From positions 3,366 through 67,365 of the forward strand of contig DAOUAM010000054.1 of the NCBI GenBank assembly GCA_034433305.1: a DNA stretch of 64,000 bases. Reading direction: 5' to 3'. The notes below the pieces were generated by a model that saw only the letters and a program-made list of their open reading frames with translations, did not search any database and had not been told where the DNA came from. The DNA comes from Dehalococcoidia bacterium. Lineage in GTDB: Bacteria > Chloroflexota > Dehalococcoidia > Lucifugimonadales > DAOUAM01. Below are positions 57,577 through 64,000 of the stretch, in pieces (within the stretch, counting starts at the first letter, position 1; every line of letters starts with the position of its first letter). Position numbers and translations under genes: made by a program.

Positions 57577-58896
57577 CTAGGCGCCGCCATCCCCCGCCGG
57601 CGTGGCGGCGGGCTGAGGCCGGTACTTGATGGAGAACTTGCTCTCCCGGATGCTGAAGCTGGCCAGGCTGGCGCCGGCCAGCAGCGAGCCAGCGATGGCA
57701 AAGGGGACGGTGTAGGAGCCGAAGGCGTCGTACAGGGCGCCTCCCATGTACACGCTGAGCGCCCCACCGGTCTGGTGGGCAAGCGTCACCATTCCGGCCA
57801 GCGTGCCCATATGCTTGAGGCCGTACACCTCGGCGGTCAGGGAGGAGGTAAGTGGCGCCGTGGCAATCCAGGAGAAGCCCGCCACAATGGCAAAGCCCCA
57901 CAGGGCGATGGGGCCAGGGGCCAGCAGAAGCATGGCGTAGGCCAGGCCGCGGACGGCGTAGGTGGCCCCCAGCAGGTTCTTGCGGCCCAGCCTGTCGGAC
58001 CAGGCGCCCACCATCAGGACGCCCAGCACGTTCAGGCCACTCATGACACCGAAAGCCAGCGCGGCAACCCCCGGCGACGCGCCACGCTCTATGGCGAAGG
58101 GCACATAGTGGGCCGAGATGATGGCCGTGGTCATGCCGCAGACGAAGTACCCGCCCGTGAGTTGCCACATGGGCAGGGACTTGTAGGAGTCCCGCCAGCG
58201 GTCAACCTCCAGCGGGCCGCGTGCCTCTTGGGAGGCCCGCGTGGACGGCGGGCCACTCGCCCCGGTAGGCCCGGAGTCGCCGTCCGGCTGGAGGCCCATC
58301 TGCGCGGGGCTGTCCCGCAGCAGGACAAAGGCCAGGGGCAACGCCAGTCCCAGCACCAGCGCGCCCAGCACTGTCCACGCCAGCCGCCAGTCCGCCGTCT
58401 GTATCAGCAACATGGCCAGGGGGACCAGCACCAGCGAGCCGGCGGACGCGCCGGCTGTGCTGATGCTCAGCGCCACGCCCCTGTTGCGCCGGAACCACCG
58501 GGCCAGCACGGCATGCACCGTCACCAGCGAGACCCCGCTGGCCGCGACGGACATGACCACGCCATATACCACTATAAAGAAGGCTATGTTGCTGGTGCGG
58601 GCCAGCAGCAGGGTGCCAGCGCCCAGGACAAACAGGCTGGTCAGGATAACCTTGCGCCCGCCCAGTCTGTCATAGAGCCGACCTATGAAGGGCTGGCTGA
58701 GGCCGTTGACCAGCCAGCCTATGGCAATGGCCAGGGAGATGGCGCCACGGCTCCACTCCAGGTCCCCGCTCATGGGGATTATGAAAACGCCGGTGCTATT
58801 CCTCGCGCCGGTGGAGACCAGCATGGCGAAGGCTGCGGCAGCTACGATAAGCCAGCCGTAGAATATGCGGCTGCCCACCCTGGATTTCGGCCACAT
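57577..58896 (-). CDS. MFS transporter
   Basis: About 12 TM helices and a GRLYDRLGGRK MFS motif. AGGAGG upstream of ATG 58896. Confidence 0.8.
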   Translation of the reverse strand: MWPKSRVGSRIFYGWLIVAAAAFAMLVSTGARNSTGVFIIPMSGDLEWSRGAISLAIAIGWLVNGLSQPFIGRLYDRLGGRKVILTSLFVLGAGTLLLARTSNIAFFIVVYGVVMSVAASGVSLVTVHAVLARWFRRNRGVALSISTAGASAGSLVLVPLAMLLIQTADWRLAWTVLGALVLGLALPLAFVLLRDSPAQMGLQPDGDSGPTGASGPPSTRASQEARGPLEVDRWRDSYKSLPMWQLTGGYFVCGMTTAIISAHYVPFAIERGASPGVAALAFGVMSGLNVLGVLMVGAWSDRLGRKNLLGATYAVRGLAYAMLLLAPGPIALWGFAIVAGFSWIATAPLTSSLTAEVYGLKHMGTLAGMVTLAHQTGGALSVYMGGALYDAFGSYTVPFAIAGSLLAGASLASFSIRESKFSIKYRPQPAATPAGDGGA

Positions 58897-59150
58897 GCTT
58901 GCCTCCTGGGATACCCTGCGTGGTAGCCTGTTGACTGGAAGTCTAGCACCGCGGACACAGATGGACAAGGCCCCGGGCCGCTGCCGCCGCCTTGCAGGCA
59001 GCACAGGCTGTCAGTGCATCCGATTATGCAGAATAATACTTAATTCGATTGCAAAATCAGACGTTTCCATACAATAATCACTAGGAACACCATGTGACCT
59101 GGGCGCACTCGTGCCACAACATGCTCCAGGGGCGCTAAGGAGAAGAAGCC

Positions 59151-59747
59151 ATGTCTGAGCAGCGGAGAGTCACACTGAAGCCGGTCACCAGGGAAGACGT
59201 CGCGCGGATAAAGAGGTGGCTTGGGGACGAGGAGGTGGCGGAAAGCTGGTTCGGCAGGTATTCCTACGGCGACCCGGCGCACCTGGGATACCACCCTTCG
59301 GAGATGGAGCACGCCTCGGAGTCCGAGTGGGAGCATGTGTTCAACAACCCTGAGCACCGCATCTACTCCATCTACAACGAGAGCGGCGAGCACATAGGCG
59401 AGGTCCACATAGCCATCGAAGAGTCCCTGGGCGACGGCCAGGTATCCATTCTCATAGGGCGCAAGGACCTGTGGCACCAGGGCTACGGCACAGCCGGCAT
59501 GAGGGCCGCCCTGGACCTGGCGTTTACCGAGCTGGGCCTGTACCGCGTGTGGGTGGACATCCCTGAGTACAACAAGGCCGCCAGGGCCATGTGCGAGCAC
59601 CTGGGCTTCATGCACGAAGGGACGCTACGCAAGAGCCGGCCCCACGAGGGCGCCAGGTTCGACTCCGTGGTAATGGGCATGCTGGCAACCGAGTACACCC
59701 AGCGGACTCCTCGCGAGGGCGCTGCTAGCGAAACTCCACGGGTCTGA
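59151..59747 (+). CDS. GNAT family N-acetyltransferase
   Basis: VTLKPVTREDVARIKRW.. and the WHQGYGTAGMRAALDLAF acetyl-CoA-binding segment. Confidence 0.8.
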   Translation: MSEQRRVTLKPVTREDVARIKRWLGDEEVAESWFGRYSYGDPAHLGYHPSEMEHASESEWEHVFNNPEHRIYSIYNESGEHIGEVHIAIEESLGDGQVSILIGRKDLWHQGYGTAGMRAALDLAFTELGLYRVWVDIPEYNKAARAMCEHLGFMHEGTLRKSRPHEGARFDSVVMGMLATEYTQRTPREGAASETPRV

Positions 59748-59828: not shown

Positions 59829-60485
59829 CTACTCGTCTATGACCACCAGCCCCTCACGGGCCGCGTGAACAATCGCCTCCGCCCTGCTCTTCACGCCAAG
59901 CTTGCTATAGATGCTGGTCAGATGGAACTGGACGGTCGCCAGGGAAACGTGCAGGCGCTCGGCAATCTCAGGGTTGGAAGCGCCGTCCACCAGTAGCTGA
60001 AGTATCTCCGCCTCTTTGTCCGTTAGCCTGTCGGACAGGGCCGTGCGCCCGTTGGAAGACTGGCCCAGGTAGCCCTGCACCACCTTCCGGCTCACCTGAG
60101 TGGAGAAAACGGTGCGCCCGGACTTTACCATGCGAAGGGACTCTATGACCTCCCTGGGAGGCGTGTCTTTCAGCACGTAGCCCTCGACCCCCAGCTCCAT
60201 CATGGCCCGAATGTATGGTTCGTTGGAGTAGTTGGTCAGCACTACGACTCGGACATCCGGGTAGTGGACGCGGATGCGCCTGACCAGTTCCACTCCGTTG
60301 ATCTCGCCCTTGAGCCGGATGTCCGTCAGGACAACATCTGGCCTGGCCCTGTTCAGCACCTCCAGTGCCTCCAAGGCGCTCGCCACATCGCCCGCGATCT
60401 CGAAGTCAGGCTCCCCTGACAGGGTAGCTACAACCCCGGCCCGGAAGATCGGGTGGTCGTCAATTATCAGGACGCTGATCATCAA
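59829..60485 (-). CDS. NarL/LuxR-type response regulator (ComA-like position)
   Basis: REC domain (VLIIDDHP..DVVLTDIRL) and a C-terminal LuxR HTH (LTDKEAEILQLLVDGASNPEIAERLHVSLATVQFH). It overlaps the kinase stop by 4 nt. Confidence 0.9.
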   Translation of the reverse strand: MMISVLIIDDHPIFRAGVVATLSGEPDFEIAGDVASALEALEVLNRARPDVVLTDIRLKGEINGVELVRRIRVHYPDVRVVVLTNYSNEPYIRAMMELGVEGYVLKDTPPREVIESLRMVKSGRTVFSTQVSRKVVQGYLGQSSNGRTALSDRLTDKEAEILQLLVDGASNPEIAERLHVSLATVQFHLTSIYSKLGVKSRAEAIVHAAREGLVVIDE

Positions 60486-62794
60486 GAGTTACCTCTGCCA
60501 TTGACTCCTTGCAATCTGGACGGACCATCTATGGGAAGTGACGCCACCACCGTCGTCCCTGACGGACTGCGGGGCAAAATCAGCAGACGCCCCCCGAGCT
60601 GCTCCGCTCTTTCCCGCATCCCGATGACACCAAGCTTGGTGCCAGGGGAGAGGTCCCTGGTCTGCTGAAAGCCGACACCATCGTCCTCTATGGTCAGGGT
60701 CACCCGGTCTTCTTCCCAGGCCAGGTGGACCCAGACGGTGCTGGCGCTGGCATGCCGCCGGCAGTTGGTCAGCGCCTCCTGGGCTATCCTGTACAGGGCA
60801 AGCTGAATCTCCGGAGGGACGTAGCCATCGCGCTCCACAGGTTCGTAGCTAAAGACCACTTTGAAGCCGGAGGCGGCGCTGGCCTCTGTCCCCAGCCACT
60901 CCAGCGCCCGCACCAGCCCCAGGTCTTCCAGCAGGGCAGGATGCAGCCTGGCCGTGAAGTTACACAGGTCCTCCGCAATGCGCTGGAGCTTCTGCTGGAC
61001 CTCAGAGGAAAGCCCGGCGCCTGCGTGCTGCCAGATAACGTTGGTGATCTGCTGAAGCGGCTCATCGTGGATGTAGGAGGCGATGCGCGCTCGCTCGGTC
61101 TCCTGGGCCTGCACCAGCCGGCGGTTCAGCTCCCTCAGCTCCCCAGCCTTGGAGCGGAGTTCCTCCAGCAACTCCAGCTTCTCCACAATAGTAGCCATAT
61201 GCCCCGCAACGGACTCCGCCAGCTTCATGTCCTCTCGCTGAAAAGGCTCCTCGGTTACCTTGGGGCCGAAGCAGAGGACCCAGGTCTCGTGCGGCTGCCT
61301 CTTGAGCTTCACCATAAGCACGTGCTCGGCGTACAGGTCCGTGGAAAGCCGCAAGAGCGACAAGCCCTGCTCAGCCTTGCCTTCTTCCTTCGAGTCCAGC
61401 AGCGGTACCAGGCCATCCGGGACTGTGCCGACCGAGGCCTTCACCTTGGCCCCATCGTCCGAAAGCCCGATGAAGGATGCAAAAGACAGCCTCAGTTCCC
61501 GGACGATGGTGCCCAGCACCGTCGTGGCCAGGTCGTCGAAATGCTTGGCATAGGCGGCGTGGATGCTGACACGCCGGGCCAGGTCGGCATGGTCTATGTA
61601 CTCCCGGTAGAGCAGCCTGTCCACCGCCGCGAAGGCCAGCCGCCTCGTCCCGGACATGGACGGGACGGCCACGAACAGGGCCGCCAGCAAGAATAGCTCT
61701 GCCGCCACGTTCTCGCTCACCTCGGGGCCACCTACCTGTCCCAGTGTGGCAATGAGCGCGCCATACAGGACAAAGACGCAGAAGGAAATCAGGGCGTAGG
61801 CCGCGCCTCTGTGCACCAGGCGCCGAATGCCCATGAGATGGTGCCGCATTATGGCGTACCCGAAGGACAGGGGTATCAGAGTAAGGCCGAGCACCGTGAC
61901 CTCAGGGCGCAGGACGAAGGGCAGGCCAGCCGCCGCTGGCAGCACACTGAAGATGATTATTGGCCCTACCGCGGCCGCGGTACCGACGGCCATGATGCGG
62001 ACCTGCTCCCTGGTGACCGGTGAGCGCGCCCCCAGATAAGTCCATGCCAGCAGGACCACTCCGCCCAGGAACGCCGCGCCCACGTAGGCGAAGGTAAGCC
62101 GCCTTACCGTGTCAAAGACCTCGGGCACGGCCAGTACGCCCACCACCCAGAGGACGTCGAGCAGCAGGGCAATGGCCAACATCATGGCCGGCACCAGCCA
62201 GTGGCGCCTCCGCGCGAATATGTAGAAGAAGAACAGGAACAGCACTGACATCCAGTGGACAAGGGGCGCCTCTGCCAGTTGCGCCAGGATGTTGGACCGC
62301 GCGGTCGCCGGGGCCAGCACTATGACTATGGCGGCCACCAGAAGGAACAGCGCCAGCGTCAGGACCTGGAGCGAACGCCTGGAGCGGAAAAACACCAGGA
62401 AACCAGTTACCGCGAAGACCAAGCCAATGGCCCAGAGGCTGGCTATGAGCGAATTGGGCGGCTGCGGCGACCGGCCCGACAACTCCAGACTCTCTCCGCC
62501 CCGGACAGACAGCACCCTGAACTCCTTCCCCCGGTCACCACCCCTGACACTCCAGGTCCGCCGGGTGATGTCAGTCCCATCTATTGCGAGAAGCACATCC
62601 CCTACCCTGACTCCAGTGTCCCAGGCGGGCGTCCCGGGACGCACCCATGTGACTACCGCCTTGCCGTCCTGGGCAAAAGCCACGTCCACTCCAAGTCGGG
62701 GTTCGCCCAGCCATACCACCACCGCCAGCACAAGTCCTGCTGGAAATGAAATGGCAAGAAGCCACCATAAAGTTGTTGCTGCCCTGGTAAACAC
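60482..62794 (-). CDS. Polytopic sensor histidine kinase (TM1, PDZ-like loop, multi-TM, HisKA_3, HATPase_c); ComP-like architecture
   Basis: 770 aa. PDZ-like GVRVGDVLLAIDG after TM1. At least 7 further TM helices. H-box YIHDEPLQ. HATPase N/G boxes (EALTNCRRHA, DDGVGF, GMRERA). GTG start. Confidence 0.85.
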   Translation of the reverse strand: MFTRAATTLWWLLAISFPAGLVLAVVVWLGEPRLGVDVAFAQDGKAVVTWVRPGTPAWDTGVRVGDVLLAIDGTDITRRTWSVRGGDRGKEFRVLSVRGGESLELSGRSPQPPNSLIASLWAIGLVFAVTGFLVFFRSRRSLQVLTLALFLLVAAIVIVLAPATARSNILAQLAEAPLVHWMSVLFLFFFYIFARRRHWLVPAMMLAIALLLDVLWVVGVLAVPEVFDTVRRLTFAYVGAAFLGGVVLLAWTYLGARSPVTREQVRIMAVGTAAAVGPIIIFSVLPAAAGLPFVLRPEVTVLGLTLIPLSFGYAIMRHHLMGIRRLVHRGAAYALISFCVFVLYGALIATLGQVGGPEVSENVAAELFLLAALFVAVPSMSGTRRLAFAAVDRLLYREYIDHADLARRVSIHAAYAKHFDDLATTVLGTIVRELRLSFASFIGLSDDGAKVKASVGTVPDGLVPLLDSKEEGKAEQGLSLLRLSTDLYAEHVLMVKLKRQPHETWVLCFGPKVTEEPFQREDMKLAESVAGHMATIVEKLELLEELRSKAGELRELNRRLVQAQETERARIASYIHDEPLQQITNVIWQHAGAGLSSEVQQKLQRIAEDLCNFTARLHPALLEDLGLVRALEWLGTEASAASGFKVVFSYEPVERDGYVPPEIQLALYRIAQEALTNCRRHASASTVWVHLAWEEDRVTLTIEDDGVGFQQTRDLSPGTKLGVIGMRERAEQLGGRLLILPRSPSGTTVVASLPIDGPSRLQGVNGRGNS

Positions 62795-62803
62795 GGCAGC
62801 ATT

Positions 62804-63814
62804 TTATCTAATTTCCTCCTGAGCAAGCAATCTCGCCAGGGGCCAATCACCTGGTGCCTTCGCCGCCAGGGCCCTTCCCACGCGCTCCGCGTGGGCCTTC
62901 TCGATGGCGGCCCGCATCCACGAATAGTGGATGGCGCCACAGCGCCACAAGGCTTCCTTGACCTCGTCCTCAGAGGCCGGGGCGTCCGTCTCCCGGGCGT
63001 AGTAGCGCTGCACCAGCCGGGCGTGGGGGCTGGACTCCGGCGGCAGGTCCAGGGCAAAGACCACGGGGAGAGTCTTTTTCCGCAGTCTCAGGTCGGACTT
63101 GCCGACGCTTCCAGGCCATACGGCGGCAATATCGTTCATGAGCTGCATCAGCAGCCCCAGGTGCCAGCCAAACTGGGCATACAGGGCTACTTCCTCTTCA
63201 TTGCCGGTGCCGACGCAGGCCCCCACCTCGGCGGCACACCTTACCAGGGAGGCCGACTTTAGCCCCGACACCAGGACTGCCTCTTCCACCGTCACGGGAG
63301 ACAGGCCCTCCAGCTCCATGTCCCGGACCTGCCCTCTCATGGCGTCCATGGCCAGGGCATCAATGGCCCGCATGGCCCTGACCACTCTGTCTGAGGGCAC
63401 GCCTCTCTCGGCCAGCCTTCCAATGGCCGCGTGGCACAACATTAGCAGGCTATAGACGGTCTCCAGCGTCCGGCCACAAGTGCGGCGGTCGCCAGGCGGG
63501 GCGACCTCGCCATCCTCGATGTCGTCTATAAGCTCGCAGGCGGCCATCAGCAGTTCCATGGCCGCGACGGCTGGGACCGCCTCCAGGGACTCGCGGCGGC
63601 CGGCCGAGGCGAAGGCCAGGAACGTCAGGGCGGCACACAGGCTGGGCTTGCCTTCGGGGAGGACTCGTGACGGCCCTGAGAGGGCCGCCAGGACCACTCC
63701 CTCCAGCCCCGCGCCCAGGCGCGCGCCCTGGACCAGTCCCAGCAACTCGTCCCTGATCGCCTGTGTGACCTCCGCCGACAGCAGAGGCGGCCCCTTGCTC
63801 GTCGCTACAGGCAT
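62804..63814 (-). CDS. Polyprenyl synthetase-fold protein (ComQ-like isoprenyl transferase candidate)
   Basis: 336 aa. A FARM-like LIDDIEDGE and a degenerate SARM-like LMQLMNDIAAV. It lies 9 nt upstream of the kinase gene. Confidence 0.55.
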   Translation of the reverse strand: MPVATSKGPPLLSAEVTQAIRDELLGLVQGARLGAGLEGVVLAALSGPSRVLPEGKPSLCAALTFLAFASAGRRESLEAVPAVAAMELLMAACELIDDIEDGEVAPPGDRRTCGRTLETVYSLLMLCHAAIGRLAERGVPSDRVVRAMRAIDALAMDAMRGQVRDMELEGLSPVTVEEAVLVSGLKSASLVRCAAEVGACVGTGNEEEVALYAQFGWHLGLLMQLMNDIAAVWPGSVGKSDLRLRKKTLPVVFALDLPPESSPHARLVQRYYARETDAPASEDEVKEALWRCGAIHYSWMRAAIEKAHAERVGRALAAKAPGDWPLARLLAQEEIR

Positions 63815-63818
63815 AGGG

Positions 63819-63998
63819 CTAGATCCACCAGTCCATGCTCATGAGGTTCGGCGCGCTCCTGGGCAGGTCGGACGTATGCGCGGCCAGGTCGGGCAAGGCC
63901 TTGAGAGAGCTTGCAACCATGCTCTCCTCGTCCGACTCCAGGGACAGGGACTGCAGGAAGCGCTCCAGGGAGGCGCTTAGCTGGACGCTCTCCACCAT
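63819..63998 (-). CDS. Candidate ComX-like pheromone precursor (59 codons from ATG 63998; may extend beyond the window)
   Basis: Hand-translated: MVESVQLSASLERFLQSLSLESDEESMVASSLKALPDLAAHTSDLPRSAPNLMSMDWWI*. The stop is 4 nt before the ComQ-like ATG. The frame remains open to the window edge. Confidence 0.4.
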   Translation of the reverse strand: MVESVQLSASLERFLQSLSLESDEESMVASSLKALPDLAAHTSDLPRSAPNLMSMDWWI

Positions 63999-64000
63999 GC

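Follow-up and report, generated by a model that had tools for sequence, protein, structure and literature searches.

The final 4.2 kb of a 64,000-nt stretch of DNA from a Dehalococcoidia bacterium (Chloroflexota; assembly GCA_034433305.1, contig DAOUAM010000054.1), called the window in the following, contain four abutting minus-strand open reading frames (ORFs) in the order X-Q-kinase-regulator which, as judged by sequence comparison, probably encode a peptide signalling circuit of the ComQXPA type. A preceding sequence-only reading of this DNA had proposed such an analogue, and the homologies found here support it: Q carries the signature of ComQ and StheQ, the kinase is homologous to ComP, and the regulator is 29% identical to Bacillus subtilis ComA over its full length (E 5e-32). 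The genes lie as that reading described them, with spacings of 4 nt between X and Q and 9 nt between Q and kinase and a 4-nt overlap between kinase and regulator (1 nt with the ATG start of the regulator); the regulator is translationally coupled to the kinase. Four same-strand genes which overlap or abut, with a NarL/GerE regulator encoded right after the kinase, are likewise found in the ComQXPA systems of the B. subtilis group, and as part of the proposed circuit the four genes likely form one operon.

Conservation of the four-gene cassette

A word-indexed protein search returned about 45 close relatives of Q. Those with named hosts all derive from Chloroflexi, SAR202 or Dehalococcoidia metagenome-assembled genomes (MAGs); two are labelled 'competence protein ComQ' by JGI and most 'geranylgeranyl pyrophosphate synthase'. 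In a genome scan, Chloroflexota MAGs (SAR202, Dehalococcoidia, Thermoflexus, Anaerolineales) accounted for eight loci, and one more was binned as Gemmatimonadetes. All 14 distinct related loci for which the sequence sufficed showed the order X-Q-kinase-regulator, in each case translationally coupled and with unrelated flanks; the linkage of Q to a two-component system, on which the earlier proposal depended, is thus conserved. It was kept down to a Q identity of 23% (23-37% in loci L005-L008), and throughout this range the kinase of about 770 residues was homologous over its whole length. Because four proteins and their order recur in independent loci with unrelated flanks, the cassette is more than a chance arrangement.

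In every Chloroflexota locus examined the precursor gene is located upstream of the transferase gene, as had been noted for the window. For Sphaerobacter, the preprint on StheQ discussed below places the peptide gene downstream (10.64898/2026.08.29.745113). The order seen here, X-Q-P-A, differs from the order Q-X-P-A by which the ComQXPA census defined the system (PMC4008528), and the GC-rich Chloroflexota host of the window differs from the Firmicutes in which it was described. The breadth of the enzyme family was estimated by an exhaustive hidden Markov model search, which yielded 401 cluster representatives at E <= 1e-30. The top 150 representatives included 146 new sequences, and 128 of these have the N-D motif introduced below; the family thus comprises at least 128 new clusters at 50% identity.

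Comparison of the window with its nearest full relative (L010) revealed that the four genes are conserved to very different degrees. Identity amounts to 89% for the regulator, 87% for the dimerisation and histidine phosphotransfer (DHp) domain, 70% for the ATPase and 60% for the GAF-like domain of the kinase, and falls to 59% for X, 59% for Q, 49% for the transmembrane (TM) region and 44% for the PDZ domain. By analogy, this gradient matches that of the Bacillus com pherotypes, in which peptide, enzyme and sensor are likewise variable while kinase core and regulator are conserved.

The adjacency of X, Q and sensor persists where the output changes. In a Thermomicrobiales MAG with a StheQ-like enzyme (L055 5767-10434), a 66-residue precursor with a Frankia_peptide/NHLP-like leader and the end STVFWK precedes Q, and two ORFs after Q align to the TM1-PDZ and TM7-TM10 parts of the window kinase, followed by a GAF-HD-GGDEF protein. 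This locus represents either a ComP-type sensor coupled to a cyclic dimeric GMP (c-di-GMP) output or a frameshifted MAG gene. Two further loci with distant N-D-type Q proteins (L056 4765-8511 and L057 769-5476) have small ORFs with Trp at position -2 (SPEWT and PLAWV) before Q and ComP-type sensors after it; the kinase core of L056 is HisKA instead of HisKA_3.

The putative prenyltransferase Q

In agreement with the polyprenyl-synthetase fold and DDIED motif noted in the sequence-only reading, Q matches Pfam polyprenyl_synt (PF00348) with 60.7 bits and reads D97-D98-I-E-D101 at the first of the aspartate-rich motifs (FARM). [quoted passage not shown] An alignment of Q with ten canonical relatives that retain DDxxD revealed three changes: EGKPSL occupies the N-terminal position of the GKRxRP motif, five residues are missing after the FARM where the RRG motif sits, and a further five are missing after the SARM, where Q224-x-x-N227-D228 stands in place of DDxxD. 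The GKRxRP, RRG and SARM regions constitute the isopentenyl diphosphate (IPP)-binding and second metal sites of chain-elongating trans-isoprenyl diphosphate synthases (trans-IPPS). All three elements of this chain-elongation set (DDxxD SARM, GKRxRP, RRG after the FARM) are absent from Q and its family, which supports the view that Q has lost the chain-elongation apparatus and kept the donor site.

The same combination of trans-IPPS fold, FARM and Q-x-x-N-D pseudo-SARM characterises ComQ. Bacillus ComQ sequences taken from metagenomic comQXPA loci contain DDIEDxD and Q-I-x-N-D and show deletions at the same two places as Q; the pattern Q-x-x-N-D occurs in seven of the Bacillus sequences. The window enzyme is 23% identical to ComQ, and in a profile comparison with hhalign it matched the Bacillus ComQ profile with a probability of 99.8% (score 194, E 1e-27). 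Against the NCBIfam equivalogs of prenyl diphosphate synthases, Q reached 5-23% of the cut-offs (e.g. 102 vs 450). The deletions and lost motifs that Q and ComQ have in common favour a single branch for both, which amounts to support by derived characters and not to proof by a tree.

Tryptophan prenylation by an enzyme of this kind was described for Sphaerobacter thermophilus in a bioRxiv preprint of 31 August 2026 (10.64898/2026.08.29.745113). Its StheX peptide is 69 residues long, has Trp at positions -3 and -2 and ends WWx; in vitro, StheQ attaches a farnesyl group to the Trp at -2. Crystal structures of StheQ showed one Mg2+ at the FARM and none at the NDxxx pseudo-SARM, activity required N215, D216 and D219, and the structure was likened to geranylgeranyl diphosphate (GGPP) synthase (GGPPS) and Ord1, the latter serving as mechanistic reference (10.64898/2026.08.29.745113). 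The window resembles this system in its Chloroflexi host, in FARM and NDxxx pseudo-SARM and in an adjacent peptide of about 70 residues with Trp-Trp at -3/-2. It goes beyond the scope of the preprint, in which no histidine kinase or response regulator is mentioned (10.64898/2026.08.29.745113), as a complete ComP/ComA-type pair follows the window Q. The StheQ-like locus L055 differs from the window in its Frankia_peptide/NHLP-like leader and GAF-HD-GGDEF output, where the window has an SLSL-DEE leader and a kinase with regulator.

StheQ was compared with Q by means of its published residue numbers and through P0247, a StheQ-like protein from a Thermomicrobiales MAG which carries 12 of the 13 StheQ residues and is 30% identical to Q. 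All 13 published residue numbers map onto Q at a constant offset of +12; eight are identical (D85, D89, D153, A167, K174, Q212, N215, D216) and three conservative, while D219 is replaced by Ala and T267 by Pro. On account of this residue map and the identity to P0247, Q is to be regarded as a distant member of the StheQ/ComQ kind. Since Trp prenylation has been shown for StheQ, a homologue about 30% identical by the proxy P0247 (10.64898/2026.08.29.745113), Q would by analogy prenylate C3 of a Trp. In the literature, this reaction on a peptide Trp is on record for StheQ, ComQ and PalQ only.

The AlphaFold2 (AF2) model of Q (mean predicted local distance difference test, pLDDT, 89.7) was about equally similar to GGPPS and Ord1, with Foldseek TM-scores of 0.7-0.8, and the same two proteins were the top matches in a sequence search of the PDB. 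In Ord1 (PDB 9V4G-9V4J) the IPPS fold serves the prenylation of indole, as proposed for Q; it matches Q residues 71-321 with E 1e-9, and Foldseek gave a TM-score of about 0.8 when normalised to target length. Its substrate, however, is a small-molecule indole and not a ribosomal peptide, and precursor or receptor genes do not accompany it. The chain-elongating type I GGPP/farnesyl diphosphate (FPP) synthases (PDB 3NF2, 1WY0; NCBIfam IdsB) share fold and FARM and are the top raw matches to Q, but possess the DDxxD SARM, GKRxRP and RRG and have no conserved peptide or kinase neighbours.

The precursor peptide X

The start of X, whose ORF within the window spans 63819..63998, is not defined by the window, because the ATG at 63998 has just 2 nt upstream of it. 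A contig of the Logan collection (L001), 100% identical to the window across 6,626 nt, runs 707 nt further and revealed the complete gene, which encodes 75 residues (L001 662-889): MSVALADPKKLEELSSMVESVQLSASLERFLQSLSLESDEESMVASSLKALPDLAAHTSDLPRSAPNLMSMDWWI. Its true ATG is located about 46 nt past the window end and is preceded at a distance of 6 nt by the ribosome site GGGAGG; an in-frame stop codon lies further upstream. X is thus a real free-standing gene and not the C-terminal part of a large unrelated protein, the outcome that the sequence-only reading had named as fatal to its proposal.

X consists of a leader with the motif F-L-x-S-L-S-L-x-x-D-E-E ... LP..LPxxxP and the variable tail LMSMDWWI; the corresponding tail of the L010 type is LIRMDVWK. 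Homologous precursor ORFs of 59-76 residues were found directly upstream of Q in 15 loci; they have in common the leader F/I-x-S-L-S-L-x-x-D-E-E ... LP ... LPxxxP(N/S), followed by a variable tail of 5-8 residues with Trp at -2 in 11 of the 15, often as WW. Three further precursors from very divergent loci have other leaders (Frankia_peptide/NHLP-like or unclassified) and end in STVFWK, SPEWT and PLAWV. Trp is thus located within the last three residues in all 18 precursors, at -2 in 14 of them, across distinct loci and at least three unrelated leader types.

The criterion of the census of Dogsa 2014, a short peptide (~55-75 aa) whose last 5-10 residues include a modifiable Trp, describes X (75 aa, W73/W74) as it does the precursors of the known ComQXPA systems, which have a similar length of about 55-75 residues and a Trp near the C-terminus. 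In contrast to ComX, in which the Trp lies 2-6 residues in, X carries it at the extreme C-terminus (-2, often WW) and is without PF05952. The SLSL-DEE leader gave no Pfam match. We consider X a likely functional analogue of ComX within the proposed circuit, with the modifiable residue placed as in StheX. Membership of X in the NHLP or ComX families was rejected after family profile searches, and a Bacillus-style position of the precursor gene between Q and kinase was rejected because the gap there is just 9 nt.

Two side observations concern precursor sequences. P0005, a protein of 381 residues encoded on a 64.8-kb ENA contig, carries the X leader ..LDEFIRSLSLPADEERSVASALEMLPGSGQRPTA in frame at the N-terminus of Q and lacks the core with the Trp; it is a natural fusion, the product of a decayed locus or an artefact of assembly or gene calling. 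In the Bacillus locus L019 (3371-3592), a natto-type pherotype, ComX has 73 residues with the C-terminal extension ..KWPPIEAISNFFEDDKRKSLI.

The sensor kinase and its relation to ComP

The kinase had been described as a polytopic protein of 770 residues with a PDZ-like first loop, and both features were recovered. Hydropathy and the positive-inside rule gave ten TM helices with N-terminus and C-terminus inside and residues 31-115 outside, and the Pfam models PDZ_6, PDZ_2 and PDZ match residues 32-105. HATPase_c was found at residues 664-755 with 49 bits, and the NCBIfam matches (MctS, UhpB, LiaS, NarX) all belong to the HisKA_3 class. The AF2 model of residues 1-545 (pLDDT 81) contains a beta-rich domain at residues 31-115 and an alpha/beta domain at residues 386-545; Foldseek related the former to the PDZ domains of DegS, DegP, DegQ, HtrA, CtpA and CtpB and the latter to GAF domains.

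As reference, Bacillus comQXPA loci were taken from metagenomes. One of them, L019, has a ComX that passes Pfam PF05952 and was matched at 100% by the B. subtilis ComA sequence used as probe. BLASTP aligned residues 34-756 of the window kinase with residues 37-770 of the 771-residue ComP of L019 (E 3e-35, 22% identity) with the H-boxes in register. The alignment of the kinase to ComP suggested in the sequence-only reading thus extends over the full length. It does not depend on the catalytic core: an hhalign comparison of the sensors (kinase residues 1-540 vs ComP 1-545) gave a probability of 99.2% with E 2.4e-19 across 481 collinear columns, compared to E 0.1 for a reversed-profile control. 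The N-terminal membrane region (residues 1-385, comprising TM1, the PDZ loop and TM2-10) gave E 2.7e-18, and the PDZ loop by itself a probability of 98 and E 2e-13. These comparisons argue for homology between the kinase and genuine ComP from end to end, sensor included, and both proteins show the same collinear arrangement of TM1, PDZ loop, nine further TM helices, GAF-like domain, a phosphotransfer domain (putatively of HisKA_3 type in the window kinase) and HATPase_c in about 770 residues.

The loop of Bacillus ComP itself gives a weak PDZ match in Pfam. ComP of B. amyloliquefaciens has been modelled with ten TM helices and a PDZ loop proposed to bind ComX (PMC9620489). The PDZ loop is therefore a feature common to ComP and no novelty of the Chloroflexota proteins.

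The TM1-PDZ-polytopic module was also observed in the proteins P0105-P0126, where its fusion partner is either a PAS-GAF-HisKA kinase of NtrC type (from a Verrucomicrobiae MAG or among unnamed metagenomic proteins) or a SpoIIE/RsbU phosphatase. Their identity to the query sensor region is 24-34% over 37-94% of its length, the best being about 25% over 94%, and some of them carry Pfam HisKA_7TM.

The response regulator and palindromes upstream of X

The assignment of the fourth gene to the NarL/LuxR regulators was confirmed by the Pfam domains Response_reg and GerE. Upstream of X, paired palindromes with 6-4-6 geometry, 22 bp apart, were found in L001 and L010. In L001 (527-564), just past the window end and some 110-135 nt upstream of where X starts, they read CTAGAG-AAAG-CCCTAG and TTAGCG-GTTC-CGCTAG; at the same position in L010 (6616-6653) they are perfect, CTAGAG-GAGA-CTCTAG and CTAGAG-AATT-CTCTAG. 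Each pair is the sole match in its locus. Two Anaerolineales loci (L007 3287-3302 and L008 5614-5629) have another perfect palindrome, CTGTGG-AAAT-CCACAG, and CTAG is enriched about 10-fold in the upstream regions with palindromes.

The geometry is like that of the ComA box, the 6-4-6 inverted repeat TTGCGG-N4-CCGCAA, and by this analogy suggests autoregulation by the cassette regulator. Such candidate operators would set the cassette apart from the B. subtilis system, which has been described as having no feedback on signal production (PMC7794433). The sequence CTAGAG-N4-CTCTAG does not occur in the 64-kb window, and for this reason no regulon targets can be proposed.

Beyond X in L001, a 247-nt intergenic region is followed by a divergent gene for a PAS-only protein of 126 residues. 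Small soluble signalling proteins are encoded divergently from X in four loci (L001 34-414, L010 6014-6568, L011 5478-6242 and L018 5795-6457, all on the minus strand), either PAS-only (126 and 184 aa) or with HisKA and HATPase_c (254 and 220 aa). These proteins may provide accessory input to the same promoter region.

Weight of the evidence and alternative explanations

Several observations count against the assignment of the cassette to ComQXPA-type signalling. For the window locus as for the full Chloroflexota cassettes, we infer signalling from homology and linkage, and no exporter or protease gene is located within the cassette. Homology of X to ComX is undetectable: PF05952 gave no match at E <= 10 for the full 75-residue X or three relatives, with genuine ComX from L019 scoring 38.8 bits as control, and hhalign of X vs ComX gave E 0.14 and a probability of 0.4%. 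HisKA_3 (PF07730) matches the kinase with 16.8 bits, below the cut-off of 24. The top NCBIfam matches of the regulator are MadR, MctR and NarL with no ComA model among them; it is a generic NarL member, and these matches offer no evidence of specific ComA orthology beyond membership of the NarL family. By count alone, the palindromes upstream of X exceed chance just modestly. The sensor module is present in proteins with no known link to Q and X (NtrC-type kinases, SpoIIE phosphatases) and is therefore not diagnostic of pheromone sensing.

The comparison of Q with ComQ and GGPPS profiles, which the sequence-only reading had proposed as a check, was divided in its outcome. The match to ComQ stood, but Q scored higher against GGPPS-like proteins (311 vs 194) and is nearer to them overall. 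Because of this overall score, the clade membership of Q rests on shared derived motifs rather than on a tree. ComQ itself scored 154 against GGPPS-like proteins, so that the Chloroflexota enzymes appear as relatives of ComQ that have diverged less.

The strongest alternative, although unlikely, is that X and Q produce a prenylated peptide of ribosomal synthesis and post-translational modification (RiPP) whose chief role is not cell-cell signalling, for instance an antimicrobial or surfactant or a lipopeptide anchored in the membrane, and that kinase and regulator control or auto-induce its production in a nisin-like manner. A precedent is PalQ/PalX/PalP of Paenibacillus alvei, treated as a RiPP cluster beside a histidine kinase, in which a small precursor with C-terminal Trp, an isoprenoid-synthase-superfamily prenyltransferase selective for C-terminal Trp and a histidine kinase are clustered as in the window (PMC10853753). 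PalQ differs in belonging to a terpene-synthase-like subfamily apart from ComQ and not PF00348-like and in its Firmicute host, and PalX differs in its NHLP leader and in a Trp that must be the very last residue (PMC10853753). Some X leaders fall into RiPP-style families (Frankia_peptide/NHLP-like), and the biological role of StheX was called unknown (10.64898/2026.08.29.745113). However, the cassette is without immunity, transporter or further tailoring genes, its receptor is homologous to ComP across the sensor, and peptide and sensor are its most diverged parts, as for a signal-receptor pair. The RiPP explanation overlaps with the ComQXPA-type circuit, because the kinase would still sense an antimicrobial that induces its own production.

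It is rather improbable that the PDZ kinase senses something other than X, e.g. exposed C-termini of misfolded envelope proteins in a DegS-like manner, with X and Q merely co-transcribed or an output. The adjacency of X, Q and sensor is held across very divergent subfamilies and changes of output domain, the PDZ loop diverges fastest along with X, which is unexpected for a generic stress sensor, and the Bacillus homologue is the ComX receptor; these points stand against the structural likeness of the loop to the PDZ domains of DegS, DegP and HtrA and the occurrence of the same sensor module in proteins without known Q/X partners. Finally, that Q is an ordinary geranylgeranyl or farnesyl diphosphate synthase beside a non-functional or unrelated small ORF is highly improbable: the top PDB and NCBIfam sequence matches are GGPP synthases and most homologues are so labelled by JGI, but the NCBIfam scores remain far below the cut-offs, the SARM aspartate and IPP-binding motifs are missing, the conservation of X is that of a protein and includes an invariant terminal Trp, and peptide prenylation is proven for StheQ, a homologue that shares the motifs of Q.

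Proposed mechanism of the ComQXPA-type circuit

In the ComQXPA-type circuit favoured here, X would be translated as a 75-residue precursor with an acidic, helical leader to which Q would bind. With farnesyl or geranyl diphosphate bound at the FARM/Mg2+ site as donor, Q would then alkylate C3 of W74, probably followed by closure of a pyrroloindoline ring. A protease and an exporter encoded elsewhere would release a short C-terminal lipopeptide, for which the approximately eight residues after LPxxxP(N/S), LMSMDW(prenyl)WI, are a plausible product. Outside the cell, the peptide would be bound by the PDZ domain and the polytopic membrane module of the kinase, which would phosphorylate the NarL-type regulator and thereby change transcription. 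The targets of the regulator may include its own operon, via the paired palindromes upstream of X. Prenylation in this organism, the processing site, export, the pairing of ligand and receptor and the regulon are steps that we infer.

One can further speculate that the cassettes belong to an ancient, phylum-wide family of prenyl-peptide quorum-sensing systems in Chloroflexota (SAR202, Dehalococcoidia, Anaerolineales, Thermoflexus, Thermomicrobiales). Enzyme and receptor would share ancestry with ComQXPA, the PDZ domain would read the lipidated C-terminus (W-prenyl-x-COOH), and peptide, enzyme and PDZ domain would co-diversify into pherotype-like groups; the sensor would have been rewired to HisKA_3 with NarL, HisKA or c-di-GMP outputs, and the operon would be auto-induced via the 6-4-6 palindromes. 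Taken together, these proposals are tentative and fall somewhat short of an even chance.

Features of the locus and neighbouring genes

Table 1. Positions in the window of the four cassette genes and of their predicted domains and motifs.
Feature	Position	Strand	Description or basis
X precursor gene	63819..64000	(-)	part within the window: last 59 of 75 aa and stop; ends ..MSMDWWI
Trp73 and Trp74 codons of X	63825..63830	(-)	W74 (position -2) predicted to be prenylated
Q, ComQ/StheQ-type peptide tryptophan prenyltransferase (predicted), 336 aa	62804..63814	(-)	Pfam PF00348, AF2 model, hhalign vs ComQ
FARM of Q, D97-D98-I-E-D101	63512..63526	(-)	predicted prenyl diphosphate/Mg2+ site; corresponds to StheQ D85/E86/D89, offset +12
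Pseudo-SARM of Q, Q224-L-M-N227-D228	63131..63145	(-)	replaces DDxxD; corresponds to StheQ Q212/N215/D216
P, ComP-type sensor histidine kinase, 770 aa	60482..62794	(-)	BLASTP and profile comparison vs Bacillus ComP
TM1 of P (aa 12-30)	62705-62761	(-)	hydropathy, positive-inside
Extracytoplasmic PDZ domain of P between TM1 and TM2 (aa 31-115)	62450..62704	(-)	Pfam, topology, AF2/Foldseek; proposed pheromone-binding site
TM2-TM10 of P (aa 116-381)	61652..62449	(-)	hydropathy, positive-inside, AF2 helices
GAF-like cytoplasmic alpha/beta linker domain of P (aa 386-545)	61160..61639	(-)	AF2, Foldseek GAF matches, weak Pfam GAF_2
Kinase core of P: HisKA_3-type DHp (H576 in I-H-D-E-P-L-Q) and HATPase_c	60530..61159	(-)	Pfam, NCBIfam, ComP alignment
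A, NarL/LuxR-type response regulator, 218 aa (TTG) or 217 aa (ATG at 60482)	59829..60485	(-)	Pfam, NCBIfam
Receiver domain (aa 5-117) and GerE helix-turn-helix (aa 153-208) of A	within 59829..60485	(-)	Pfam Response_reg and GerE

Directly downstream of the regulator, a GNAT acetyltransferase (59151-59747, plus strand) and an MFS transporter (57577-59004, minus strand) are encoded, with Pfam labels taken from the identical contig; the latter is the nearest candidate exporter. Both are probably outside the cassette, because neither adjoins it in other loci. Rfam identified no RNA family in the window, and consensus scans for promoters and terminators gave nothing informative.

Significance

ComX-type peptide quorum sensing has hitherto been treated as a speciality of Firmicutes. 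A census of 2014 found no comQXPA outside this phylum (PMC4008528), and the sequence-only reading stated that such cassettes have essentially been described only there. This view is outdated in the light of StheQ/StheX in Chloroflexi and of a KEGG survey of 2022 which found ComP/ComA-type pairs in the same phylum. The enzyme chemistry, now also in Chloroflexi, the architecture of ComP and its PDZ loop are already known. In the literature searched we did not find described the complete four-gene Chloroflexota cassette, its breadth, the permuted X-Q order, a distinct (third) leader type and full-length homology to ComP.

As the sole report from Chloroflexi covers enzyme and peptide only, the cassette supplies the missing half, a putative ComP-homologous receptor and a regulator in one predicted operon with both. 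The loci provide a natural series of peptide/PDZ pairs for studying the recognition of lipidated peptides by ComP-type receptors, and a large set of putative peptide Trp prenyltransferases with varied tails, comprising at least 128 new clusters at 50% identity. From these sequence comparisons, ComQXPA-type signalling appears to be widespread outside Firmicutes, and a ComQ-like enzyme of open role becomes part of a testable signalling circuit in mostly uncultured lineages that are abundant in soil, the subsurface and the deep ocean.

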